In this document: piece after piece, positions 2,537 to 55,485 of the stretch
How the letters are laid out: each line of letters starts with the position of its first letter
Numbering within the stretch: position 1 is the stretch's first letter
From: an uncultured delta proteobacterium
GTDB taxonomy: Bacteria > Desulfobacterota > WTBG01 > CAIYCZ01 > CAIRTM01
DNA length: 64,000 nt
Reading direction: 5' to 3'
Assembly (NCBI GenBank): GCA_903881505.1
Contig: CAIRTM010000075.1
Location: forward strand, 20,878-84,877
Program-made: the position numbers and the translations under genes
The notes under the pieces: model-generated
What the model was told of the DNA's origin: nothing
What the model saw: only the letters and a program-made list of their open reading frames with translations
Databases searched by the model: none

Positions 2537-2618
2537 GGTGTTTCTCCTGCTGTATCTATCGGGCTGTTGAAAAACGCCCGTTCTCCGTAAAAGGTCTCCT
2601 GCGGAGGACGGGTCCTAT

Positions 2619-2642
2619 AGGGGCGAAAAATTTTTCGCCCCT
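2619..2642. terminator. Perfect 24-nt palindrome AGGGGCGAAAAATTTTTCGCCCCT. Bidirectional rho-independent terminator downstream of folD, separating it from cdhD-cooS.
   Basis: 12-bp GC-rich stem flanked by an A5/T5 core, about 45 nt 3' of the folD stop. Confidence 0.7.
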
Positions 2643-2685
2643 ATCCAGGCAGGCACAGGGGCCAGACCCTACTAACACCTCATTT

Positions 2686-3594: not shown

Positions 3595-3694
3595 GGTGAT
3601 AATTACCTCCTGGCGGTTACATGCACACGAATGCATGTCATGATCGGTGTGTTGTTTTGAAATCCAATACCTTGTGTAGTGTTGCCGGTCTTTT

Positions 3695-3763
3695 GTCATT
3701 GCGAGGGAGCAGCGCGGCTGAGAAATCTTGAAAGCCACGATTTCTCCCTGCGGTCGAAATGAC
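3695..3763. repeat. Palindromic interspersed repeat copy A. GTCATTGCGAGGGAGCAGCG...GAGAAATCttgaaagccacGATTTCTC...CGAAATGAC, with the inverted termini GTCATT/AATGAC.
   Basis: Imperfect terminal inverted repeats plus an internal GAGAAATC/GATTTCTC hairpin. A second copy lies at 54036-54101. It is intergenic between folD and cooC. Confidence 0.6.
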
Positions 3764-3785
3764 AAAGACAAAAAATTGCGCACGG

Positions 3786-4553
3786 TCAGTTCGCAAGCAT
3801 GCTCTCGGCAATCTGATCCATGGCCCGGACCGCCGGGCTGTCATCGGGCAGTTCCATCACGGGGCGGGCGGCAATTTCAAATTCCGGCAGCAGGGCGTCT
3901 GCAGGCACACGGCCTGCAAGCGCAATGCCGGTTGCCGCAAGCGCGCCTGTGAACTGCGCTGAAAGTTCTTGCGGTGCCCGGTTGACAACAAGCAGCACGC
4001 GGCCAACCTGCAGCTTCATCTCCTTCGCCAGATCGCGCACGCGCTCTGCTGCTTTAAGACCGTTCAGGGAATAGTCGGATACCAGCACCAGCGTGTCAAC
4101 GGCCTGGGCCGTGCGCCGGCTCAAGTGCTCAAGCCCGGCTTCGTTGTCGATCACTACAAAGGGGTAGTTCCTGCCCAGAGTCTCCAGATATTTGCGCAGC
4201 ATATTGTTGATATAGCAATAGCAGCCCGGTCCTTCGGGCCGGCCCATCACCATCAGGTCGATGTCGCGTGATTCAACCAGGGCCTGTGCAAGCTGCATTT
4301 CAAGCCAGGCTTCCTTGGGCATGCCGGCCGGCACCTGATCGCGGTTGGCGAAAAAATCCTCGCGCGTGCCCCCGATGGTCGCAAGTGTCTTGTCGGCGCA
4401 CATGCCAAGGGCTGCGGGCAGGTTCGTATCAGGGTCAGCGTCAACCGCAAGCACAGGTCGTTTGCCGTTTTTGAGAAGGCAGCGGATAAGAAGCGCGGCA
4501 ATGGTTGTTTTGCCGGTGCCGCCCTTGCCGGCGATCGCGATGACCCGGCTCAC
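3786..4553 (-). CDS. cooC: CODH nickel-insertion accessory ATPase (CooC/AcsF family, MinD-like P-loop).
   Basis: MSRVIAIAGKGGTGKTT deviant Walker A, 255 aa. GTG start at 4553 overlaps the upstream TGA stop (GTGA), implying translational coupling. Confidence 0.85.
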   Translation of the reverse strand: MSRVIAIAGKGGTGKTTIAALLIRCLLKNGKRPVLAVDADPDTNLPAALGMCADKTLATIGGTREDFFANRDQVPAGMPKEAWLEMQLAQALVESRDIDLMVMGRPEGPGCYCYINNMLRKYLETLGRNYPFVVIDNEAGLEHLSRRTAQAVDTLVLVSDYSLNGLKAAERVRDLAKEMKLQVGRVLLVVNRAPQELSAQFTGALAATGIALAGRVPADALLPEFEIAARPVMELPDDSPAVRAMDQIAESMLAN

Positions 4554-6497: not shown

Positions 6498-8261
6498 CTA
6501 GAACAACCCGTGGACCTTGCCGGTTTTGGTGTCGATGTCGATGCGGCGGAACGCCGGGTTGGAGCCCGTGCCGGGCATCAGGCTGATGGAGCCCGCGCAG
6601 GGGCACAGAAACCGAGCGCCGGAGAAAATCAAAATGTCCCTGATCGGCAGCACCCAGCCCCTGGGCACGCCCTTAAGCGAGGGGTCATGGCTCAGGCTCA
6701 GATGGGTTTTAACCATCAGCGTGGCATAGTCGGCGTACTGCGGATCGTTTTCACATATCTTTGCTTTCTGCAGGGCTTCGGGTTCCCAGAACACGCCGTC
6801 AGCTCCGTAAATTTCCTTGGCGATCAGTTCCACGCGATCGCGCAGCTTCATCTCGAGAGGGTACATGTAGGTAAAATCATTTTGCTCCTCGCATGCCTCG
6901 ATCACCGCATCAGCCAGCTCAAGCGCCCCCTCGCCGCCGCGCAGCCAGTGCTCGCTCGCGGCACAGCGCGCGCCGGCGGCCTCAGCGGCTTTTTTTACCA
7001 TGGCAACCTCGGCTTGTGTGTCCGCGCAGAACGTGTTGATGCACACGACCGGGGTAATGCCCGCTTTTTTCAGAATGCCGATGTGGTGCACCATGTTGCA
7101 CAGGCCCTGTTCCAGCAGGCGCAGGTTTTCACGCGTGTATTCCTCGGGCAGGGGCTTGCCCGGTATGACCGCCGAACCGCCGCCGTGCATTTTCAGCGCC
7201 CGTATGGTTGCGGTCAGCACCGATACATCCGGCTTCAGGCCGCTCAGGCGGCATTTCACGTTGCAGAATTTTTCAAACCCGATGTCGGCGGCAAAGCCGC
7301 TTTCGGTCACGTGATAGTCGAACAGCTTCAGCCCGATGCGGTCGGCGATAATCGATGACTGCCCCACGGCGATGTTGGCGAACGGGCCGGCATGCACCAT
7401 ACAGGGCTGGTACTCGGCCGTGCACAGCAGCGTAGGGTTGATGGTATTGCGCATCCAGGCGGCCATGGCGCCGCCCACCTCGAGATCACCGGTGGTAACG
7501 GGGCGTCCCTGTTTGTCGAAGGCCACCGTGATTTTATCGAGCCGCTCGCGGAGGTCGGCCAGGTTGCGCGCTACAGAGAGAATGGCCATGCACTCGGAGG
7601 CGGCAACGATGCCGAACTTTGACTGCATGGTGAAGCCGTCATAGCGGCCGCCGATACCGATGATGATGTTGCGCAGGCTCTGGGCGCACACGTCCAGAGC
7701 CCAGCCGAATTCGACACGGGTGGGGTCGATGTCAAGGCGGCGGATGCCGCTCAGGCGCAAAAGCTGCTCGTCTGAGTAGTTGCGCTCGTGCTGCATGCGC
7801 GCGGTCAGGGCTGTCATGGCGAGGTTGTGCGCGTTCATGATGTCGTTGATGTCGCCGGTCAGGCCCAGCGAAAATTCGGTCATGGGAATCAGGAGCGCGT
7901 TGCCGCCGCCCGCGGCCGTACCCTTGACGTTCATGGTGGGACCGCCCGATGGCTGGCGCAGGGCGCCGCCCGCGCTTTTGCCGCGTTTGCCCAGGCCTTC
8001 GAGCAGGCCTATCGAGGTCGTGCTTTTGCCCTCGCCGAGAGGGGTCGGGGTAATGGCGGTAACCTCGATATACTTGCCGTCCGGCTTGTGGCGCAGGCGC
8101 TCGATGATGCGCATGAAATCAAGTTTCGCCAGCCGGCCCATAGGCAGCAGCTCGCCGTTTTCAAGGCCCAGCATGCCCTGCATGCGGGCGTGATCGGGCA
8201 TGAGCTCTTCAGCCGCCTCGGATATCTGCCAGTCCTGCAATATGCGCGGATCGTACGGCAT
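6498..8261 (-). CDS. fhs: Formate--tetrahydrofolate ligase.
   Basis: 587 aa with the hallmark [17 protein letters not shown]-loop and overall FTHFS architecture. Confidence 0.95.
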
Positions 8262-8376
8262 GAGATGGTCCCTCTGTGGTCCTGAAATTCAGCCCTGTGC
8301 TTCGTGTGCCGGCAGAAGCAACCAGGTGGACGTAAAGGCTGGTGAAGTCGTAAAAAGTTTGAAAATGTTACGCTTA

Positions 8377-8440
8377 GTCATTCCGGCGCAGGCCGGAATC
8401 CAGGGATTTAAAGTGCGCGGACAAAAAACTGGACACCAAT
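8377..8440. repeat. Palindromic intergenic element GTCATTCCGGCGCAGGCCGGAATCCAGGGATTTAAAGTG. Possibly a distant relative of the 3695/54036 repeat family.
   Basis: Begins with the same GTCATT hexamer, followed by an 8-bp hairpin ATTCCGGC/GCCGGAAT. It lies in the fhs-cysK intergenic region. Confidence 0.4.
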
Positions 8441-8611
8441 CTTAACCGGTGCGACGACTTTTTACGGCTTCATCAATAATTAACGTTCTTCGCCTGAACG
8501 TGCCTGTGGCAGTACGCGCATCAGCCGGAGAAGCGAGAACCGCTGTGCCGCACGACTATATATATAGGGAAGGCAGTATATTTCGCGGAAGTATTTTTGT
8601 CAAACCGCAAA

Positions 8612-10769: not shown

Positions 10770-11005
10770 GGTAATGCCGGCGGGGGGCAGGGGCCGCAAA
10801 AAACATTTGTCCATTTCTTTGCCCACTCCAACGAAATGACTCAAAGGGGGCCCTGCACCGCAGTCCGCCTGGAGCGGATGCCCTCGCCGAGCGCACGCAC
10901 GCGCGGGCGTCTGTACGGACGAAACAATTCGCCCTCTTACCCTGGCCGGTAGTGATCCCGCCATGACGGAAAAAACGCAGCGGACAGACCTTTGTCAGCA
11001 GCCTG

Positions 11006-12691: not shown

Positions 12692-12809
12692 ACAAATGCC
12701 TTCTCCTGAATTGTTCCGATATGCCAATTTTTCCGCCCGGCGTGATAAAATCCGCAGACGGTCTTATCTGTTATAGCCTGAAACACTATATGAAACGGTA
12801 TCTGCGAAG

Positions 12810-12964
12810 CACGTGTAAAAAGGCCGCAGGCAAGGCGTGCAAATCCGAAGGAATGCGGCGTACATTTGGTACGCCGCAGTGACTGGGGAAGCAGCACAAC
12901 GCAGCCCTTCGGCGAAGCTCAGGGCCGTGAGCCTGTCGAACGGCATCCGGTCTTTTTACACGTG
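12810..12964. repeat. About 155-bp element bounded by 17/18-bp inverted repeats (CACGTGTAAAAAGGCCG ... CGGTCTTTTTACACGTG). It contains an internal 10-bp-stem hairpin (TGCGGCGTAC...GTACGCCGCA). Candidate MITE or structured RNA between cysE and ettA.
   Basis: Left arm 12810-12826, right arm 12947-12964, seen directly in the sequence. No convincing ORF inside. Confidence 0.55.
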
Positions 12965-12966
12965 CT

Positions 12967-13893
12967 TCATATGTAGTACATGTAGACGTCTGCCGGCGCA
13001 AGCTGATCCCTGCCCTTATACACCAGATTGGGCGGCTGATGCGTGATGGTCGTGTCCGGCGGGATCGATTCGAGCAGCCAGACATTACCGCCGATAATGG
13101 AATTTTTCCCTACGACCGTATCGCCGCCCAGAATAGTCGCACCCGCATAGATCACGACGTTATCCTCGATGGTGGGGTGGCGCTTGCCGCCCTTGACAAT
13201 TCGGCCGTCCTGATCCTTCTTGAAGCTCAGCGCGCCCAGGGTAACGCCCTGATAGATGCGCACGTTGTCGCCGATCTCTGATGTTTCGCCGATAACCACG
13301 CCGGTGCCGTGATCGATAAAAAAACGTTCGCCGATGTGCGCGCCGGGATGGATGTCAATGCCGGTTGCGCGGTGGGCAAACTCGGTCATGATGCGCGGGA
13401 TCAGCGGCACATCCAGATGGTAGAGCTCATGGGCGATGCGGTACACGGCGATCGCCAGCAGGCCCGGATAGCTGACGATGATTTCATCAAAGCTGCGCGC
13501 GGCCGGATCGCCTTCATAGGCGGCCTCCACGTCGCCGGTCAGCTTCTCCCGAACCGCGGGTATCGCTCCCAGAAACGCGATTGTTTTCGCGACCGCCTGC
13601 TCGGCAAGACTTTCTGCCGCATGGTCAGCGCCTTTCAGGCTCTTTGCAATTTCATGGGCCAGGCTGTGGTACATCGAAACTGTTTTTTCCCAGATATAAA
13701 GCCGGATCTCCGAGCGGCTCATTTCCTGTTTTTCAAAATAGCCGGGGAACAAAACGTTGATAATATCCTGAACGATCTCCTCCACGGCAGCGCGGCCGGG
13801 CAGGTTGGCGCCCTCGATGTGGTTGATGCCGCGGTCGGTTGCGTAGCTGTCAAGAATCTGCGTGATGATATGGGCAAGCTGCTGTGAAGGCAT
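12967..13893 (-). CDS. cysE: Serine O-acetyltransferase.
   Basis: 308 aa. C-terminal hexapeptide-repeat left-handed beta-helix region (GVVIGETSEIGDNVRIYQGVTLG...) and N-terminal SAT helical domain. Confidence 0.85.
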   Translation of the reverse strand: MPSQQLAHIITQILDSYATDRGINHIEGANLPGRAAVEEIVQDIINVLFPGYFEKQEMSRSEIRLYIWEKTVSMYHSLAHEIAKSLKGADHAAESLAEQAVAKTIAFLGAIPAVREKLTGDVEAAYEGDPAARSFDEIIVSYPGLLAIAVYRIAHELYHLDVPLIPRIMTEFAHRATGIDIHPGAHIGERFFIDHGTGVVIGETSEIGDNVRIYQGVTLGALSFKKDQDGRIVKGGKRHPTIEDNVVIYAGATILGGDTVVGKNSIIGGNVWLLESIPPDTTITHQPPNLVYKGRDQLAPADVYMYYI

Positions 13894-16792: not shown

Positions 16793-17953
16793 ATGCGATT
16801 TTCCCTCGATGCTACTGACGGCCGCGCACGAGCCGCCACCATTGATCTGCCGCACGGCACGCTCACGACGCCCGTATTCATGCCGGTCGGAACGCAGGGT
16901 ACCGTGAAAGCCATGACGAACGCGCTGCTTGAAGACATCGGGGCGCAGATCGTCCTCGGCAATACCTACCACCTGTACCTGCGGCCCGGAGCCGATATTA
17001 TAGCCCGGGCCGGCGGCCTGCACCGCTTCAGCGCATGGCAGCGTCCCTTTCTGACCGACTCGGGCGGCTATCAGGTCTACTCGTTAGCGAAGCTGCGCAC
17101 CTTGAACGACAGCGGTGTCAGTTTTCAGTCCCACGTGGACGGCAGCATGGTCGAGTTCACGCCTGAAAAGGTCGTTGCGTTTCAGGAACTGCTCGGCGTC
17201 GACATCATGATGCAGCTTGACGAATGCCCTCCGACCACGGCCGATCGCGACCAGATCACGGCCGCGGTTCAGCGCAGCCTGCTGTGGGCCGCTCGCTCGC
17301 GCGAGGCCTGGCGGCGAGATGAGTGCGCCCTGTTCGGCATTGTGCAGGGAGGGCTGCATGCCGACCTGCGCGCCCAAAGCGCTGCCGGCCTCATCGCGCT
17401 TGATCTGCCCGGATACGCACTGGGCGGATTCTCGGTCGGCGAGGATATGCAGCAGTCCTATCCGGCCATCGCGGCAGCCGCTGCCTTGCTGCCGCCGGAC
17501 AGGCCGCGCTACCTCATGGGCATCGGGTTTCCCGAGGACATCGTGCGCGCGGCGGGATTCGGCCTTGACATGTTCGACTGCGTGCTGCCCACGAGATGCG
17601 CCCGCAACGGCCTGTGCTTTTACTCGGGAGGCCGCCTGCGCATAAAAAACGCCTGCTACCGCGACGATATGAGTCCGATAGACCCCCAGTGCACGTGTTA
17701 TGCCTGCCGCACGGTTTCACGGGCCTACCTGCGGCATCTGTTTCTTGCCAATGAAATAACCGCATGCGTATTGATGACGATCCATAACCTGCACTATTAC
17801 CTTGAGCTGTGCCGCGGCATGCGCGCCGCGATTATGGCCGGCCGGTTCCGTGAATTTCACGACGGTTTCCTTGCATCGCCTGCAGGTCGTGCCCATGGCG
17901 CGGCCGAAGCTGCCGGCGGTCCCGCATGCGCGCAGGCGCGCAGGAAGACGTAA
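16793..17953 (+). CDS. tgt: Queuine tRNA-ribosyltransferase (tRNA-guanine transglycosylase).
   Basis: MRFSLDATDGRARAATIDLPHGTLTTPVFMPVGTQGTVK, the internal ...LDECPPTT..., and the zinc site CTCYAC.R..LRHL. Start at ATG 16793. Confidence 0.9.
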   Translation: MRFSLDATDGRARAATIDLPHGTLTTPVFMPVGTQGTVKAMTNALLEDIGAQIVLGNTYHLYLRPGADIIARAGGLHRFSAWQRPFLTDSGGYQVYSLAKLRTLNDSGVSFQSHVDGSMVEFTPEKVVAFQELLGVDIMMQLDECPPTTADRDQITAAVQRSLLWAARSREAWRRDECALFGIVQGGLHADLRAQSAAGLIALDLPGYALGGFSVGEDMQQSYPAIAAAAALLPPDRPRYLMGIGFPEDIVRAAGFGLDMFDCVLPTRCARNGLCFYSGGRLRIKNACYRDDMSPIDPQCTCYACRTVSRAYLRHLFLANEITACVLMTIHNLHYYLELCRGMRAAIMAGRFREFHDGFLASPAGRAHGAAEAAGGPACAQARRKT

Positions 17954-51902: not shown

Positions 51903-52979
51903 GTGGGGCGGAATACTGCCGAAGGCATTGAATTTTTTATAGACAGTTCAACGACGGAAAACAGTTTGGTAGAAATTGTACACAACCCCCGACTGATCCA
52001 GACGGACCTGCCGGTATGCGCATCGGAGGGATACCTGAAGTCCGCCGCAAAAACCTACGGCTGGTTTGTCAGTCCTGAATTCATCCTGCCCTTTTATACC
52101 TTGAACCGGGCTTTCACCAGGCACATGATTTTCACTTCGGGCCCCGTAAAAAACACCCCGGCGACTACCATACAGCAGGAAAAAGCGTTTCTGACAGACG
52201 TGGTCGCCCGGTGCCGCCGCATGGCTGTCGATGTAATCAGCCAGCCGAAAACAACGGCGCTCTTTACCACGTATCCCGACGGCGCCATCTGCATCCCGTG
52301 GGGATGTTATCAGGTTGACCTTCTCAAAAGCGAAGATGAGCTGTTTTCCAGGTTACATGCCAGCCGCCGCCGTGTTATCCGGAAGGCGGAACGGGAGGGT
52401 GTTTGCATCTTCCGCGGCCCCGAACACATTAATGCCTGCCATAGGCTCATTGTACGGACGCTGGAACGACAGGGCCGGCCGGGCATACCGCATGCGCAGT
52501 TAGCGGCCTATCAGGAACATCTGCCGCTGAACGTATCATTTTATCTGGCATGCCATAACCGCGCAGACCATGCCTGCGCCGTCCTGGTACATGACAGCGA
52601 AACCGCCTTCTACATTCACGGCGGAAGTTGCACAACGCCGCATCACGGTGCTGCAAGCCTGCTTCACTGGACCGCCATGCGGGACATGAAATGCCGGGGG
52701 CTGAAGACCTACAATTTTGTCGGCGGCAGGATCCGTCCGGTCAAGGGGTCGAAGCAGGAATTCATTCAGCTGTTCAAATCACGATTCGGAACCACCTTTA
52801 CGAGCGGTTATTTATGGAAGTATCCGTTGAGCCCCTGGAAACACAGCCTGTACCGGACGTACAATCGTTTCAAAGGCCTGGCCAGGGGGAAATATCATTA
52901 CGAAGACATCATCGACAACGAGATCAGAACCGGCAGCATGGAAAAATCAACACTGATTAATAATGCTCTCCGGACATAA
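51903..52979 (+). CDS. FemAB-like / GNAT-fold acyl- or aminoacyl-transferase (pfam Acetyltransf_6-like).
   Basis: 358 aa. C-terminal ...SFYLACHNRADHACAVLVHDSETAFYIHGGS...GAASLLHWTAMRDMKCRGLKTYNFVGG matches the FemX/FemAB-family core. GTG start 24 nt after the preceding stop. Confidence 0.6.
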   Translation: MGRNTAEGIEFFIDSSTTENSLVEIVHNPRLIQTDLPVCASEGYLKSAAKTYGWFVSPEFILPFYTLNRAFTRHMIFTSGPVKNTPATTIQQEKAFLTDVVARCRRMAVDVISQPKTTALFTTYPDGAICIPWGCYQVDLLKSEDELFSRLHASRRRVIRKAEREGVCIFRGPEHINACHRLIVRTLERQGRPGIPHAQLAAYQEHLPLNVSFYLACHNRADHACAVLVHDSETAFYIHGGSCTTPHHGAASLLHWTAMRDMKCRGLKTYNFVGGRIRPVKGSKQEFIQLFKSRFGTTFTSGYLWKYPLSPWKHSLYRTYNRFKGLARGKYHYEDIIDNEIRTGSMEKSTLINNALRT

Positions 52980-53061
52980 TCCGGTCCGCAGGGCATATTC
53001 GGAATTTTCAAAGGTACTGCGGAACAATAACAAAAACCAACCCGTTGCAATCCACCTGTTT

Positions 53062-54006
53062 ATGAAAAAAACGATTTTAATCGTCCTGCACAAACATGAC
53101 TCGCCGCTGCAAAACTCCTGCTATGTAATCAAGTATTTCATCCAGCGATGGGCGGAACAGGGATATACCGTTTTGAGCGCTAACGGCACCGACAAAAAAA
53201 TTGATGCGGATATCGTGATCAATCATGTTGACTTAACCGTTACGCCTTCGAACTACATCCGTTATTTCAGCGCATATAACAAAAAAATTAATACGGATGT
53301 AACGGATATTTCCAAAACAGCTGTCAGCAACTGCATTTTAAAACCGGGTGCAAGCCATGCCGGTCCGGTAATTGTGAAAACGAACAATAATTGCGGCGGG
53401 CTGAGAGAAGAGAACATGCGGATGCGCTCTCGAAGCATGGCTGCCTGCGCACGAAAGATTACATCGGTTTTGTCAAACCGTATCAAGAAGGCCGAAATAC
53501 ACAATAGCGCATTGCAATCATCAGGGGTAACGCCATCAAACTGCAGACACATTGACACTGTTAAAAACTGGAACCATGTCACAACGCTGGATAACAGAAA
53601 CTATCCGATCTTTGACAGTGTCCACCAGGTACCCGCCGGCGTTTGGAATAATGAAGCTCTGGTTGTCGAACGATTTATGCCGGAACGTGACGCCGCGGGC
53701 AACTATGTATGCAGATACCTCTATTTTCTGGGAGATAAATCCTTTTGTGTTGTCACAACATCGGAAAATCCTGTCGCCAAAAGCCAGATCATCGGCAGGC
53801 AGATTCTACCGGGCCCCGGGCCGGTAGAGTTGCAACAATTTCGCAGGACATTCCGCATGGATTACGGAAGACTGGATTACACCTTAGTAGACGGCCGGGT
53901 TTGGCTGTTTGATGCCAACAGGACCCCAACGTTTTCTCCGGAAACCTATGCGACATACAGGGAGCAGATTGATGCGTTGTCGGAAGGGATACACTCATTT
54001 TTTTAG
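53062..54006 (+). CDS. ATP-grasp-fold ligase (RimK/Ddl-like), putative.
   Basis: 314 aa. C-terminal ...ALVVERFMPE...YLYFLGDK...LDYTLVDGRVWLFDANRTPTFS resembles the ATP-grasp C-domain (E/D...N metal ligands). Low GC (about 45%). Confidence 0.5.
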   Translation: MKKTILIVLHKHDSPLQNSCYVIKYFIQRWAEQGYTVLSANGTDKKIDADIVINHVDLTVTPSNYIRYFSAYNKKINTDVTDISKTAVSNCILKPGASHAGPVIVKTNNNCGGLREENMRMRSRSMAACARKITSVLSNRIKKAEIHNSALQSSGVTPSNCRHIDTVKNWNHVTTLDNRNYPIFDSVHQVPAGVWNNEALVVERFMPERDAAGNYVCRYLYFLGDKSFCVVTTSENPVAKSQIIGRQILPGPGPVELQQFRRTFRMDYGRLDYTLVDGRVWLFDANRTPTFSPETYATYREQIDALSEGIHSFF

Positions 54007-54035: not shown

Positions 54036-54101
54036 GTCATTGCGGGCGCAGCGAGAAATCTTTATAAAAACGACAGGATATCTCCCCGCGGCAGAGATGA
54101 C
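54036..54101. repeat. Palindromic interspersed repeat copy B. GTCATTGCGGGCGCAGCGAGAAATCT...ATATCTCCCCGCGGCAGAGATGAC.
   Basis: Same termini and GAGAAATCT core as copy A at 3695-3763. Intergenic between the ATP-grasp and membrane-protein genes. Confidence 0.6.
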
Positions 54102-54180
54102 ACTGCTTATATGGTTATGGTAAAAAAAAATGCTCTAAATCATCTTCAACTTCTTATACAGGTAAAAGCTGTTTTTCCCT

Positions 54181-55086
54181 ATGGCCAAACATAAACGCCT
54201 TATCGCTTTATTCCTTATATTCATTGCCCTATTGTTTCTCTTTCGGTGGGAAGTTAAATTTGCCTTTACAGCTCTCTGCAAAGGACAGCTGCAGGAAGCA
54301 GTTACGAACTCCTCATCGCAGGAGCAAACCGCCACCCTGCCATACAAGGCACTCTACCAAGGCACGCAGGCCATCACCATCGACCGTGACAGTGCTGTTA
54401 TGAATTTCACAAGGCCTTCAGCCCTTGACCGCTTGAGTTTGCAGGAAATCGCCGACTTCCGAATGAAAAAGGTAGCCCAATACAGCTTTCTTAACATTTT
54501 TCCTCCCGGCTACAATCCGCTTGCGGGCGCAAGCGCCAGAATCTACAAAAAGATTGAGCCGGGGGCGCTTTGGGTCGGACAAACTCCTTTCTACATAGCC
54601 AATCCCTACCTGCTCATAATTTTGTCGAACGCATACCGGGTTCTGCCCATAGATCTTCCCTGCCATGACCTGTCCGTCACCTACGACAGCGCAATCATCG
54701 AAGAACGGCTGCAGGGTGCTACGGCAAAATGTTTTTTTGATCTGGTCTACGGAGAAAGTGCGGAACACCCCGGAACGCTGCGCGTCAATATGGTGAATGC
54801 GTACGACAGCGGATTTCACTATGTAAGCATTGATAAGGAACAGTCCTTAAACATACAGGCATATAAGTCTTCCGGCAACATTGTTGGCGGTCTTTTCAGC
54901 CAGCCATCTTTTTATCACAGGGGGCGGCATGGCTCTAACAATATAAGCCCCGAGGATAAAAACGGCTGGATTACTCTGCAAGAAGAAGGTGCGGCCACCA
55001 GAATATTTTTTAAACTCTGGAGAAACAAGCCTGCTTCTCCAGAAAACACCGCTGATATGCTGTATATTATTTATATTATTCCTTAG
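54181..55086 (+). CDS. Membrane-anchored hypothetical protein (N-terminal TM helix, about 270-aa extracytoplasmic domain).
   Basis: MAKHKRLIALFLIFIALLFLF signal anchor. Low GC. No recognisable motif. Confidence 0.5.
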   Translation: MAKHKRLIALFLIFIALLFLFRWEVKFAFTALCKGQLQEAVTNSSSQEQTATLPYKALYQGTQAITIDRDSAVMNFTRPSALDRLSLQEIADFRMKKVAQYSFLNIFPPGYNPLAGASARIYKKIEPGALWVGQTPFYIANPYLLIILSNAYRVLPIDLPCHDLSVTYDSAIIEERLQGATAKCFFDLVYGESAEHPGTLRVNMVNAYDSGFHYVSIDKEQSLNIQAYKSSGNIVGGLFSQPSFYHRGRHGSNNISPEDKNGWITLQEEGAATRIFFKLWRNKPASPENTADMLYIIYIIP

Positions 55087-55485
55087 GCAATGAAGCTGTG
55101 ACAACACGTGCTCTGCGGATACAACAACCATCGGACAGCAAACAACAGCCTTTCATCGTACCATCAGCAGTTTAAGAATCCATAACAGTTCAGTCCTCGT
55201 GGATAATCGGGATCAAAGGTGTCATATGTGGTGATTTGCTCATCGGCATAATACTCCGATGGCGGCGAGTTGATCTTTGGCGGCGGCCGCTTCTGCGACT
55301 CCCCCAGCCCCAGATGCTGCACTACAGAGAGGCAAAATTGTTATGTGTCAGCCAAAAGGCGACAGAACTGCATTTAGAATAATACAACTGTTGCAAAATT
55401 TGCTGCTGACGGGAAAACCTAACGGGTGAATTAGTATAACCTCGGCATAATCATTTCCGGGCGGTTTCCGTGTTAAACATAAAAA

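Follow-up and report, generated by a model that had tools for sequence, protein, structure and literature searches.

Copies A and B, two dispersed palindromic repeats located 50 kb apart in the window (the whole 64-kb stretch of DNA that was analysed), are probably REPIN/BIME-like inverted doublets of a YGTC-tagged non-coding hairpin, which would be active in single-stranded form and spread in trans by a putative factor. Both are ageing passengers in the spacers where they now lie; copy A retains one perfect arm while copy B is decayed.

Copies A and B and the 8377 element

The original prediction placed two homologous copies at 3695-3763 and 54036-54101, with GTCATT starts and (A/G)ATGAC ends, and both were recovered. 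Their homology was assessed by local alignment and with an nhmmer profile in place of a gapless repeat finder, which missed the pair because of indels. The A-B alignment scored 39, better than any other non-self match of A or B in the 64-kb window, the next best of which scored 28. The blocks common to both copies in a gapped alignment are GTCATTGCG, GCAGC, GAGAAATCTT, AT.TCTCCC.GCGG and GA.ATGAC, and the pattern GTCATT-N35-65-ATGAC matched the window three times when 0.59 matches were expected. The arms were scored with R1, a covariance model built from the modules of other genomes only and run on the window. The features of the two copies are:

3695..3763, no strand assigned: copy A, inverted doublet with tags outward, in the cooC-folD spacer
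3739..3763, minus strand: arm of copy A, canonical short module GTCATTTCGACCGCAGGGAGAAATC (R1 42.9 bits, E 2.7e-6)
3695..3727, plus strand: arm of copy A, degenerate long-type module GTC ATTGC GA (15 nt) GA GAAAT C (R1 13.8 bits, E 1)
3728..3738, no strand assigned: variable spacer (loop) of copy A
54036..54101, no strand assigned: copy B, degenerate inverted doublet
54036..54060, plus strand: arm of copy B, short module GTCATTGCGGGCGCAGCGAGAAATC (R1 24.4 bits, E 0.009)
54076..54101, minus strand: arm of copy B, GTCATCTCTGCCGCGGGGAGATATCC (nhmmer arm profile, E 6.7e-5)

Copy A is thus a heterodimer in which a perfect short module is combined with a degenerate arm of the long type, and copy B is a decayed dimer. 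The minus-strand arm of copy A comprises the tag, the ATTTC/GAAAT stem, GA..GA, a C:G pair and C-GCA-G, and is an exact match to the pattern used for the genome scan described below; a single stem pair is broken in its plus-strand arm, where a G is opposite an A. The palindrome of copy A continues to 3688-3769 (GTCTTTTGTCATT...AATGACAAAGAC) and its sequence did not differ among three metagenome contigs of the same organism. One stem pair is also broken in the plus-strand arm of copy B, in which GA is changed to GG; the minus-strand arm has an intact ATCTC/GAGAT stem and a decayed centre, and R1 gave no hit there at E <= 10. The plus-strand arms of A and B share an odd ATTGC...GAAAT stem with one G opposite an A, a variant which recurs elsewhere since about eight distinct loci of a metagenome scan contained such a hybrid arm paired with a canonical partner. 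The base before GTC is a thymine in both arms of copy A (tGTC and tGTC), and a cytosine and a thymine in those of copy B (cGTC and tGTC). Modelled as RNA or DNA, either strand of copy A folded into a strong hairpin (z -2.9 to -4.0), and the fold of copy B was weak (z -0.4 to -1.7).

Copy A occupies the spacer between the stop of cooC, 22 nt away, and the start of folD, about 100 nt away; these two genes are on the minus strand, in a Wood-Ljungdahl operon of the same strand which comprises FTHFS, RACo, cooC, folD, acsD, cooS, acsB, acsC and acsE. Copy B follows the stop of gene 52963-54006 by 30 nt and precedes gene 54181-55086 by 80 nt, the two genes being on the plus strand. The proposed intergenic position was thus confirmed for both copies, but the 'ATP-grasp' and 'membrane protein' labels given to the genes flanking B found no counterpart in Pfam, which gave no hit for either gene. 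A third GA-type copy of the same organism, an inverted doublet between acsC and acsE just outside the window (L001 16930-17007), has a left arm identical to the minus-strand arm of copy A at 24 of 25 positions.

A third element of the window had been proposed as a possible relative at 8377-8440. This element is real, but within the superfamily it is a member of another family (CGTC-1, see below), and it extends from 8377 to 8456. Its features are:

8377..8403, plus strand: CGTC-1-type REP unit, aGTC ATTCCGGC GCAG GCCGGAAT CCAG
8429..8456, minus strand: inverted degenerate partner with three G.T pairs, cGTC GCACCGGT TAAG ATTGGTGT CCAG
8345-8359 and 8457-8471: outer 15-bp inverted repeat, GAAGTCGTAAAAAGT / ACTTTTTACGGCTTC, which brackets the CGTC-1 dimer

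The unit has a perfect 8-bp stem, a 4-nt GCAG loop and a CCAG tail, and it was scored at 18.7 bits (E 0.12) by R1 at 8377-8400 of the plus strand. Nearly the same composite, with a perfect partner, is present at another locus in a relative (L004 19782-19860), and the outer motif GTCGTAAAAAGTC also brackets GA-type doublets at three other loci (L044, L151 and L152). About 74 kb of the source organism contained three GA-type doublets and one CGTC-1 dimer.

Anatomy, covariation and distribution of the module

Six arms were aligned to give a consensus (GTCATTnCGnnCGnnnnGAGAAATC), which was used as the scan pattern (GTCATTNCGNNCGNNNNGAGAAATC) over 185,579 species genomes. At least 120 stretches were found, in metagenome-assembled genomes (MAGs) and isolates of many phyla, when about 17 were expected by chance according to our own estimate (about 1.2e12 searched positions and 18 fixed bases). 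The matches listed, which are not a random sample, include Bacteroidota, Chloroflexota, Desulfobacterota, Ignavibacteria, Gamma- and Betaproteobacteria, Clostridia, Nitrospirales, Omnitrophica, Armatimonadota and Hydrogenedentota among the bacteria, archaeal MAGs labelled Methanosarcinales and Bathyarchaeota, and at least one isolate, Flavobacterium olei JCM 31673 (L052). The REP-like dispersed palindromic family of the original prediction thus exists, with a conserved and covarying structure, and is far larger than had been supposed.

Among the matches listed, 150 modules were compared at the positions left free by the pattern. Several of these were nearly fixed (T7, A10 and G16 in 148 modules each and A15 in 141), and the free positions 11 and 17 (x:y) were paired in 137 modules, as C:G in 63, G:C in 42, A:T in 29, T:G in two and T:A in one. 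The canonical module, of about 25 nt, can therefore be written GTC-ATTTC-GA-x-C-GNA-G-y-GA-GAAAT-C, that is, a YGTC tag, a 5-bp stem starting with AT, a tandem G.A/A.G, a covarying pair and a C-G pair closing a GNA triloop, followed by the closing stem and C(T). The tag and the tandem GA..GA are invariant across modules. The base before GTC was a thymine in 161 and a cytosine in 27 of 194 modules, and the tail after ...AATC was TT in 66 modules, TC in 46, TG in 35, TA in 18 and CC in only 11.

A search in which the stem was unconstrained and only the tag, GA..GA and CG.AG were fixed, with about 0.1 arms expected, gave 28 further arms. All five stem pairs were formed in 24 of them, with seven different stem sequences (ATTCC/GGAAT, ATTCT/AGAAT, ATCCT/AGGAT, ATCCC/GGGAT, ATCTT/AGGAT, ATCTC/GAGAT and ATGCT/AGCAT). 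Covariation was tested on an alignment of 45 distinct sequences (A3) against 500 shuffles. Paired cells represented 96.5% of the alignment as opposed to 82.5% in the shuffles, the number of cells changed on both sides was 56 instead of 16.6, and the covariation score was 0.457 instead of 0.188; none of the 500 shuffles reached the observed values, and the signal was lost when the partners were slid. Pair 4:24 was A-U in 44 and pair 5:23 was U-A in all 45 sequences, as they are in all arms of A, B and the 8377 element, and a few G.U pairs occurred in the covarying fold. The strong covariation of the stem therefore indicates that the fold is under selection. A covariance model was the check proposed in the original prediction for conservation of structure; R1 found both copies, and the stems covary. 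Since the nearest-neighbour energy of a single module as DNA was weak (-2.6 kcal/mol, z -0.7), the support for the fold comes from covariation.

The inner mini-hairpin, usually x-C-GNA-G-y, can be replaced by hairpins of 5-24 nt, always between the conserved GA..GA. One replacement centre is a nested GA-x-GA-[x'CGNAGy']-GA-y-GA, and the others, up to about 20 nt long, are Watson-Crick hairpins of the ordinary kind. Modules are arranged as inverted doublets with the tags outward, as solo units and occasionally as tandem arrays; 34 clean doublets, with spacers of 5-102 nt, were obtained with a strict score, and under looser conditions 87 of the 150 modules had a partner arm.

In five unrelated genomes (L025 ~2140-2210, L010 ~3723-3790, L098 ~6860-6932, L036 and L020), a complete module is immediately preceded, on its 5' side, by a tandem array of 19-23-nt units. 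Each unit consists of about 10 nt of flank and the first 11-14 nt of the module, stopping at or just before the GNA loop; slippage or nicking may have occurred at that point.

The copies lie in intergenic spacers beside ordinary genes, in either orientation. Solo modules showed no orientation bias with respect to the flanking genes (25 sense, 26 antisense, 20 between convergent and 12 between divergent genes), and a crude test against local GC skew also gave no bias (52 and 59), in particular none towards the lagging-strand template, the preference shown by IS200/IS605 elements. All-against-all clustering of the 2,163 ORFs of 120 loci, done to find a recurrent neighbour, brought out generic families only, for example histidine kinases and ABC transporters. 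No Pfam family had more than three members among the 148 nearest genes, and no transposase was present among the families listed or examined. No RAYT flanked by modules was found in the window, in the 120 8-kb loci or in about 1.3 Mb of DNA examined, and three short contigs bounded by modules (L037, L061 and L024) carried ordinary genes and no transposases. BLAST against the PLSDB plasmids and the INPHARED phages gave no match, and only 22 stretches of IMG/VR contained the module. Rfam 15 gave no match at gathering thresholds in the window, and only two weak and unrelated matches at E <= 1 on five loci with canonical copies. Literature searches by sequence string (GTCATTGCGAG, GTCATTTCGA and TCGAAATGAC) yielded nothing beyond primers and papers on other subjects.

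At seven loci of Bacteroidota (L028, L033, L047, L059, L106, L109 and L084), the modules have as neighbours, 20-40 nt away, long and perfect GC-rich hairpins of the type GGGG(A/T)TGN..GGCGGC-loop-GCCGCC..CCCC. They are another repeat family, which co-occurs with the modules in mosaic spacers.

Relationship to known repeats

The CGTC-tagged REP superfamily was described by Di Nocera, De Gregorio and Rocco in 2013 (BMC Genomics 14:522, PMC3733652), with families CGTC-1 to -4, and includes RPE-4/RPE-6 of Rickettsia and dRS3 of Neisseria. Its members have an unpaired CGTC or TGTC (or CCTC) tag, an 8-9-bp stem starting with AT, a 4-5-nt loop and a CCA tail; they are intergenic, mostly head-to-head dimers which can fold into a larger hairpin, occur in five phyla and have no dedicated transposase (PMC3733652). 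They are mostly located downstream of ORFs, and many are plausibly transcribed (PMC3733652). Every one of the listed CGTC-1 features was found in 8377-8403, whose translation, VIPAQAGIQ, can be compared with the VIPAKAGI of PMC3733652. The 8377 element is thus a typical CGTC-1 dimer, related to A and B at the superfamily level only.

The module of A and B shares with this superfamily the YGTC tag, the AT at the start of the stem, the head-to-head dimers, the intergenic location and the lack of a locally linked transposase, and A, B, the L001 copy and the 8377 element are all dimers. However, the superfamily has a continuous 8-9-bp stem with at most one mismatch and a 4-5-nt loop, whereas the GA-type module has 5 bp, the tandem G.A/A.G, 2 bp and a GNA triloop; its tail is CT(N) rather than CCA, and its spread is far wider than the five phyla reported for CGTC REPs. 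A and B could therefore be placed in none of the four CGTC families because of their stem continuity, loop length and tail, and they appear to be a new structural variant of the superfamily, with a GA mismatch, outside these families. Repeats with more than one stem mismatch were dropped by the pruning used in PMC3733652, so that such a variant would not be catalogued there.

GTAG REP/BIME/REPIN repeats with their RAYT (TnpA_REP; E. coli and Pseudomonas) resemble the module in being short imperfect palindromes with an unpaired 5' tag, arranged as inverted doublets in intergenic spacers without target-site duplication, and they act as a folded single strand (PMC6006769). However, their tag is GTAG rather than YGTC, and REPIN families are lineage-specific whereas the GA-type module is nearly identical across phyla. 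The analogy thus fails on membership, since neither a GTAG tag nor, in the DNA examined, a RAYT was seen, and a REP/RAYT-like system transmitted vertically does not account for the near-identity across phyla.

DNA mini-hairpins of the d(GCGAAGC) type, with a GNA triloop and sheared G.A pairs, are unusually stable in single-stranded DNA. The core of the module, x-C-GNA-G-y, is often literally GCGAAGC and is flanked by 5'-GA/3'-AG, but d(GCGAAGC) is a structural motif and not a genetic element, and the nearest-neighbour prediction for the module is modest, as given above. Several other readings were rejected: the hammerhead, for which there is no CUGANGA core, the K-turn, for which there is no 3-nt bulge before the GA pairs, the integron attC site, for which there is no GTTRRRY core site, and the CRISPR, as the spacers of the tandem arrays resemble each other.

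Turnover between relatives and origin of the copies

Copy A is absent from relatives whose FolD is at least 90-95% identical (L004 and L167). At the same point, after the shared ...GCGCAA..TTTGT, these relatives have a GTAG-type REP (GTAGGGGCACGGCATGCCGTGCCCCTAC) and another repeat instead; the cooC-folD spacers of the relatives are too diverged to give exact insertion boundaries for A. Copy B abuts a segment of about 1.4 kb (54102-~55480, with a 301-aa gene at 54181-55086) which is absent from a relative (L165/L166) whose neighbouring protein at this site is 80% identical. At the corresponding place, before a conserved groEL terminator, that relative has another doublet from this superfamily (L165 7137-7260; R1 24.9 bits). 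The original prediction that one copy marks an island border was correct in part: B lies inside, and not at the edge of, a low-GC stretch of 46-55.5 kb, but it does adjoin the segment missing in the relative. That segment (54102-55480, compared with L165 7261-7390) is the part of the window with the lowest GC content (0.47) and carries the 301-aa ORF, for which Pfam gave no hit; it was probably gained recently, or lost in the relative.

The GA..GA pairs form on one strand only, and the active form would for that reason be the folded single strand; a binding site in duplex DNA is ruled out by the variable length of the inner hairpins. A trans-acting putative enzyme would probably recognise the tag and the hairpin and make or move copies, and RAYT and REP offer the analogy for the leading candidate, a nuclease of the HUH type that acts on single-stranded DNA. 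We infer mobility from dispersal and from turnover between relatives only; the weak energy of a single module, the lack of a lagging-strand bias and the near-identity of the module across phyla speak against this reading. A bolder version, to which we give a rather small chance, is that the GA-type YGTC module is the footprint of an undescribed and very widespread system, in which a conserved enzyme other than the known RAYTs would recognise the hairpin of single-stranded DNA or of RNA, with its tag, tandem sheared G.A and GNA mini-hairpin, and would copy or maintain it in bacteria of many phyla and in some archaea; the near-identity across phyla would then reflect constraint by the enzyme and not descent, and the arrays of the five genomes would be scars left by the enzyme acting at the loop.

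The modules could instead work mainly as RNA, as mRNA stabilisers, processing sites, attenuators or small RNAs, selection on the fold being due to this use. Copy A lies inside a co-directional operon just past cooC, the fold covaries and includes a few G.U pairs, and REPs are mostly found downstream of ORFs and in many cases plausibly transcribed (PMC3733652). However, solo modules were sense and antisense in nearly equal numbers (25 and 26), some are between divergent genes, no Rfam family was matched, and the same module is found beside unrelated genes in many phyla, which argues against a gene-specific regulator. The dedicated small RNA or insulator considered in the original prediction is not supported by the same orientation counts and Rfam result. 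No T-tract terminator was found at A, and the interior of B contained only a weak 6-bp terminator candidate, on the strand opposite to the flanking genes; the reading as an intrinsic terminator, which would have a GC-rich hairpin followed by a T-tract on the transcribed strand, was rejected. A main role as RNA thus seems unlikely. In the reading that we favour, A and B, when transcribed, would probably act only as generic intercistronic hairpins, for instance by slowing 3'-exonucleases after cooC. It seems less likely still that the hairpins owe their maintenance or importance to a use as targets of site-specific insertion or recombination and mark points of rearrangement. dRS3 of Neisseria is a target site for filamentous prophages. 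Similarly, REPs serve IS110/IS1111 elements as targets, as the GTAG REP does for IS1111 in Coxiella (PMC5896051); moreover, B abuts the segment absent from L165/L166, where another doublet of the superfamily is found, and the site of A holds a different type of REP in close relatives. On the other hand, no integrase, IS110-type gene or prophage was present among the genes examined beside A, B and the other copies, the case consists of one indel beside one copy, and a role as target accounts neither for how the repeat arose nor for how it spread.

Ordinary MITEs, that is, deletion derivatives of DDE-type insertion sequences whose terminal inverted repeats would be the arms, would account for the inverted-repeat architecture, the length of 65-80 nt and the dispersal. 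We consider them very improbable: target-site duplications were lacking in 28 of 30 doublets, a result equal to that of the shuffled control, and at A, B and the L001 copy, a large number of copies consist of a single arm or a tandem array, each arm is a covarying hairpin in its own right, and neither a transposase among the 148 nearest genes nor a copy in the PLSDB plasmids was found. The MITE-like family of the original prediction, taken strictly, was therefore not retained, no related transposase having been found. Chance similarity, or generic GC-rich hairpins, would fit the observation that B alone folds no better than shuffled sequence, but an independent model from other genomes found both A and B and the positions left free by the pattern are conserved. 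This explanation, to which we give practically no credence, is refuted by the A-B alignment, the pattern count in the window (3 instead of 0.59), the genome scan and R1. The reading of A and B as REPIN/BIME-like doublets spread in trans is the one we favour.

We know of no mobilising enzyme for the CGTC-tagged REPs since their description in 2013. The anatomy of the module is sharply defined, covarying and nearly invariant across very distant lineages, and it thus offers a practical handle for finding the missing factor, by phylogenetic profiling against protein families or by pull-downs with a 25-nt oligonucleotide such as d(GTCATTTCGAGCGAAGCGAGAAATC). For annotation, recognition of the module accounts for many of the spurious 'hypothetical proteins', of the contig breaks and of the hypervariable spacers of operons that are met in metagenome-assembled genomes. 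The consequence for the window is modest: its elements, which lie in spacers of a Wood-Ljungdahl operon and a low-GC gene cluster, are passengers in decay; the value lies in the module family and not in the decaying copies A and B.

Other repeats were observed in the window and in related genomes. The folD-acsD spacer (window 2610-2680) contains two hairpins of the GTAG-REP kind, TATAGGGGCGAAAAATTTTTCGCCCCTAT then CCAGGCAGGCACAGGGGCCAGACCCTAC (with GTAG on the other strand), and similar units are found in the acsC-acsE spacer of the same organism (L001 ~17060-17125), so that the spacers of the Wood-Ljungdahl operon hold both REP superfamilies. A 163-nt composite palindrome at 12806-12968, with an outer inverted repeat GAAGCACGTGTAAAAAGGCCGCAGGC / GCATCCGGTCTTTTTACACGTGCTTC (26 nt, 88%), encloses a repeat of about 75 nt (GCAAGGCGTGCAA...GAATGCGGCGTAC-loop-GTACGCCGCAGTGA...GCAGCACAACGCAG), which is also present in the cooC-folD spacers of three relatives (L004, L005 and L167) and is a separate dispersed repeat family. 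On the minus strand at 10813-10840, overlapping the start codon of a dinB-like gene, the module's tag and outer stem surround a decayed centre in the sequence GTC ATTTC GT TGGAGTGGGCA AA GAAAT GGAC (R1 E 8.7; nhmmer E 18). This may be the relic of a solo module whose 3' stem contains the ATG of the downstream gene. Finally, a clean head-to-head CGTC dimer, aGTC ATTCCCGA..TCGGGAAT CCAG followed by CTGG ATTCCGGG TCAAG CCCGGAAT GACg, was found just downstream of folD in an 85% relative (L007 10941-11013, NCBI CP070737.1); the gene order is different there, and the neighbourhood of folD therefore attracts repeats of the superfamily in that genome also.
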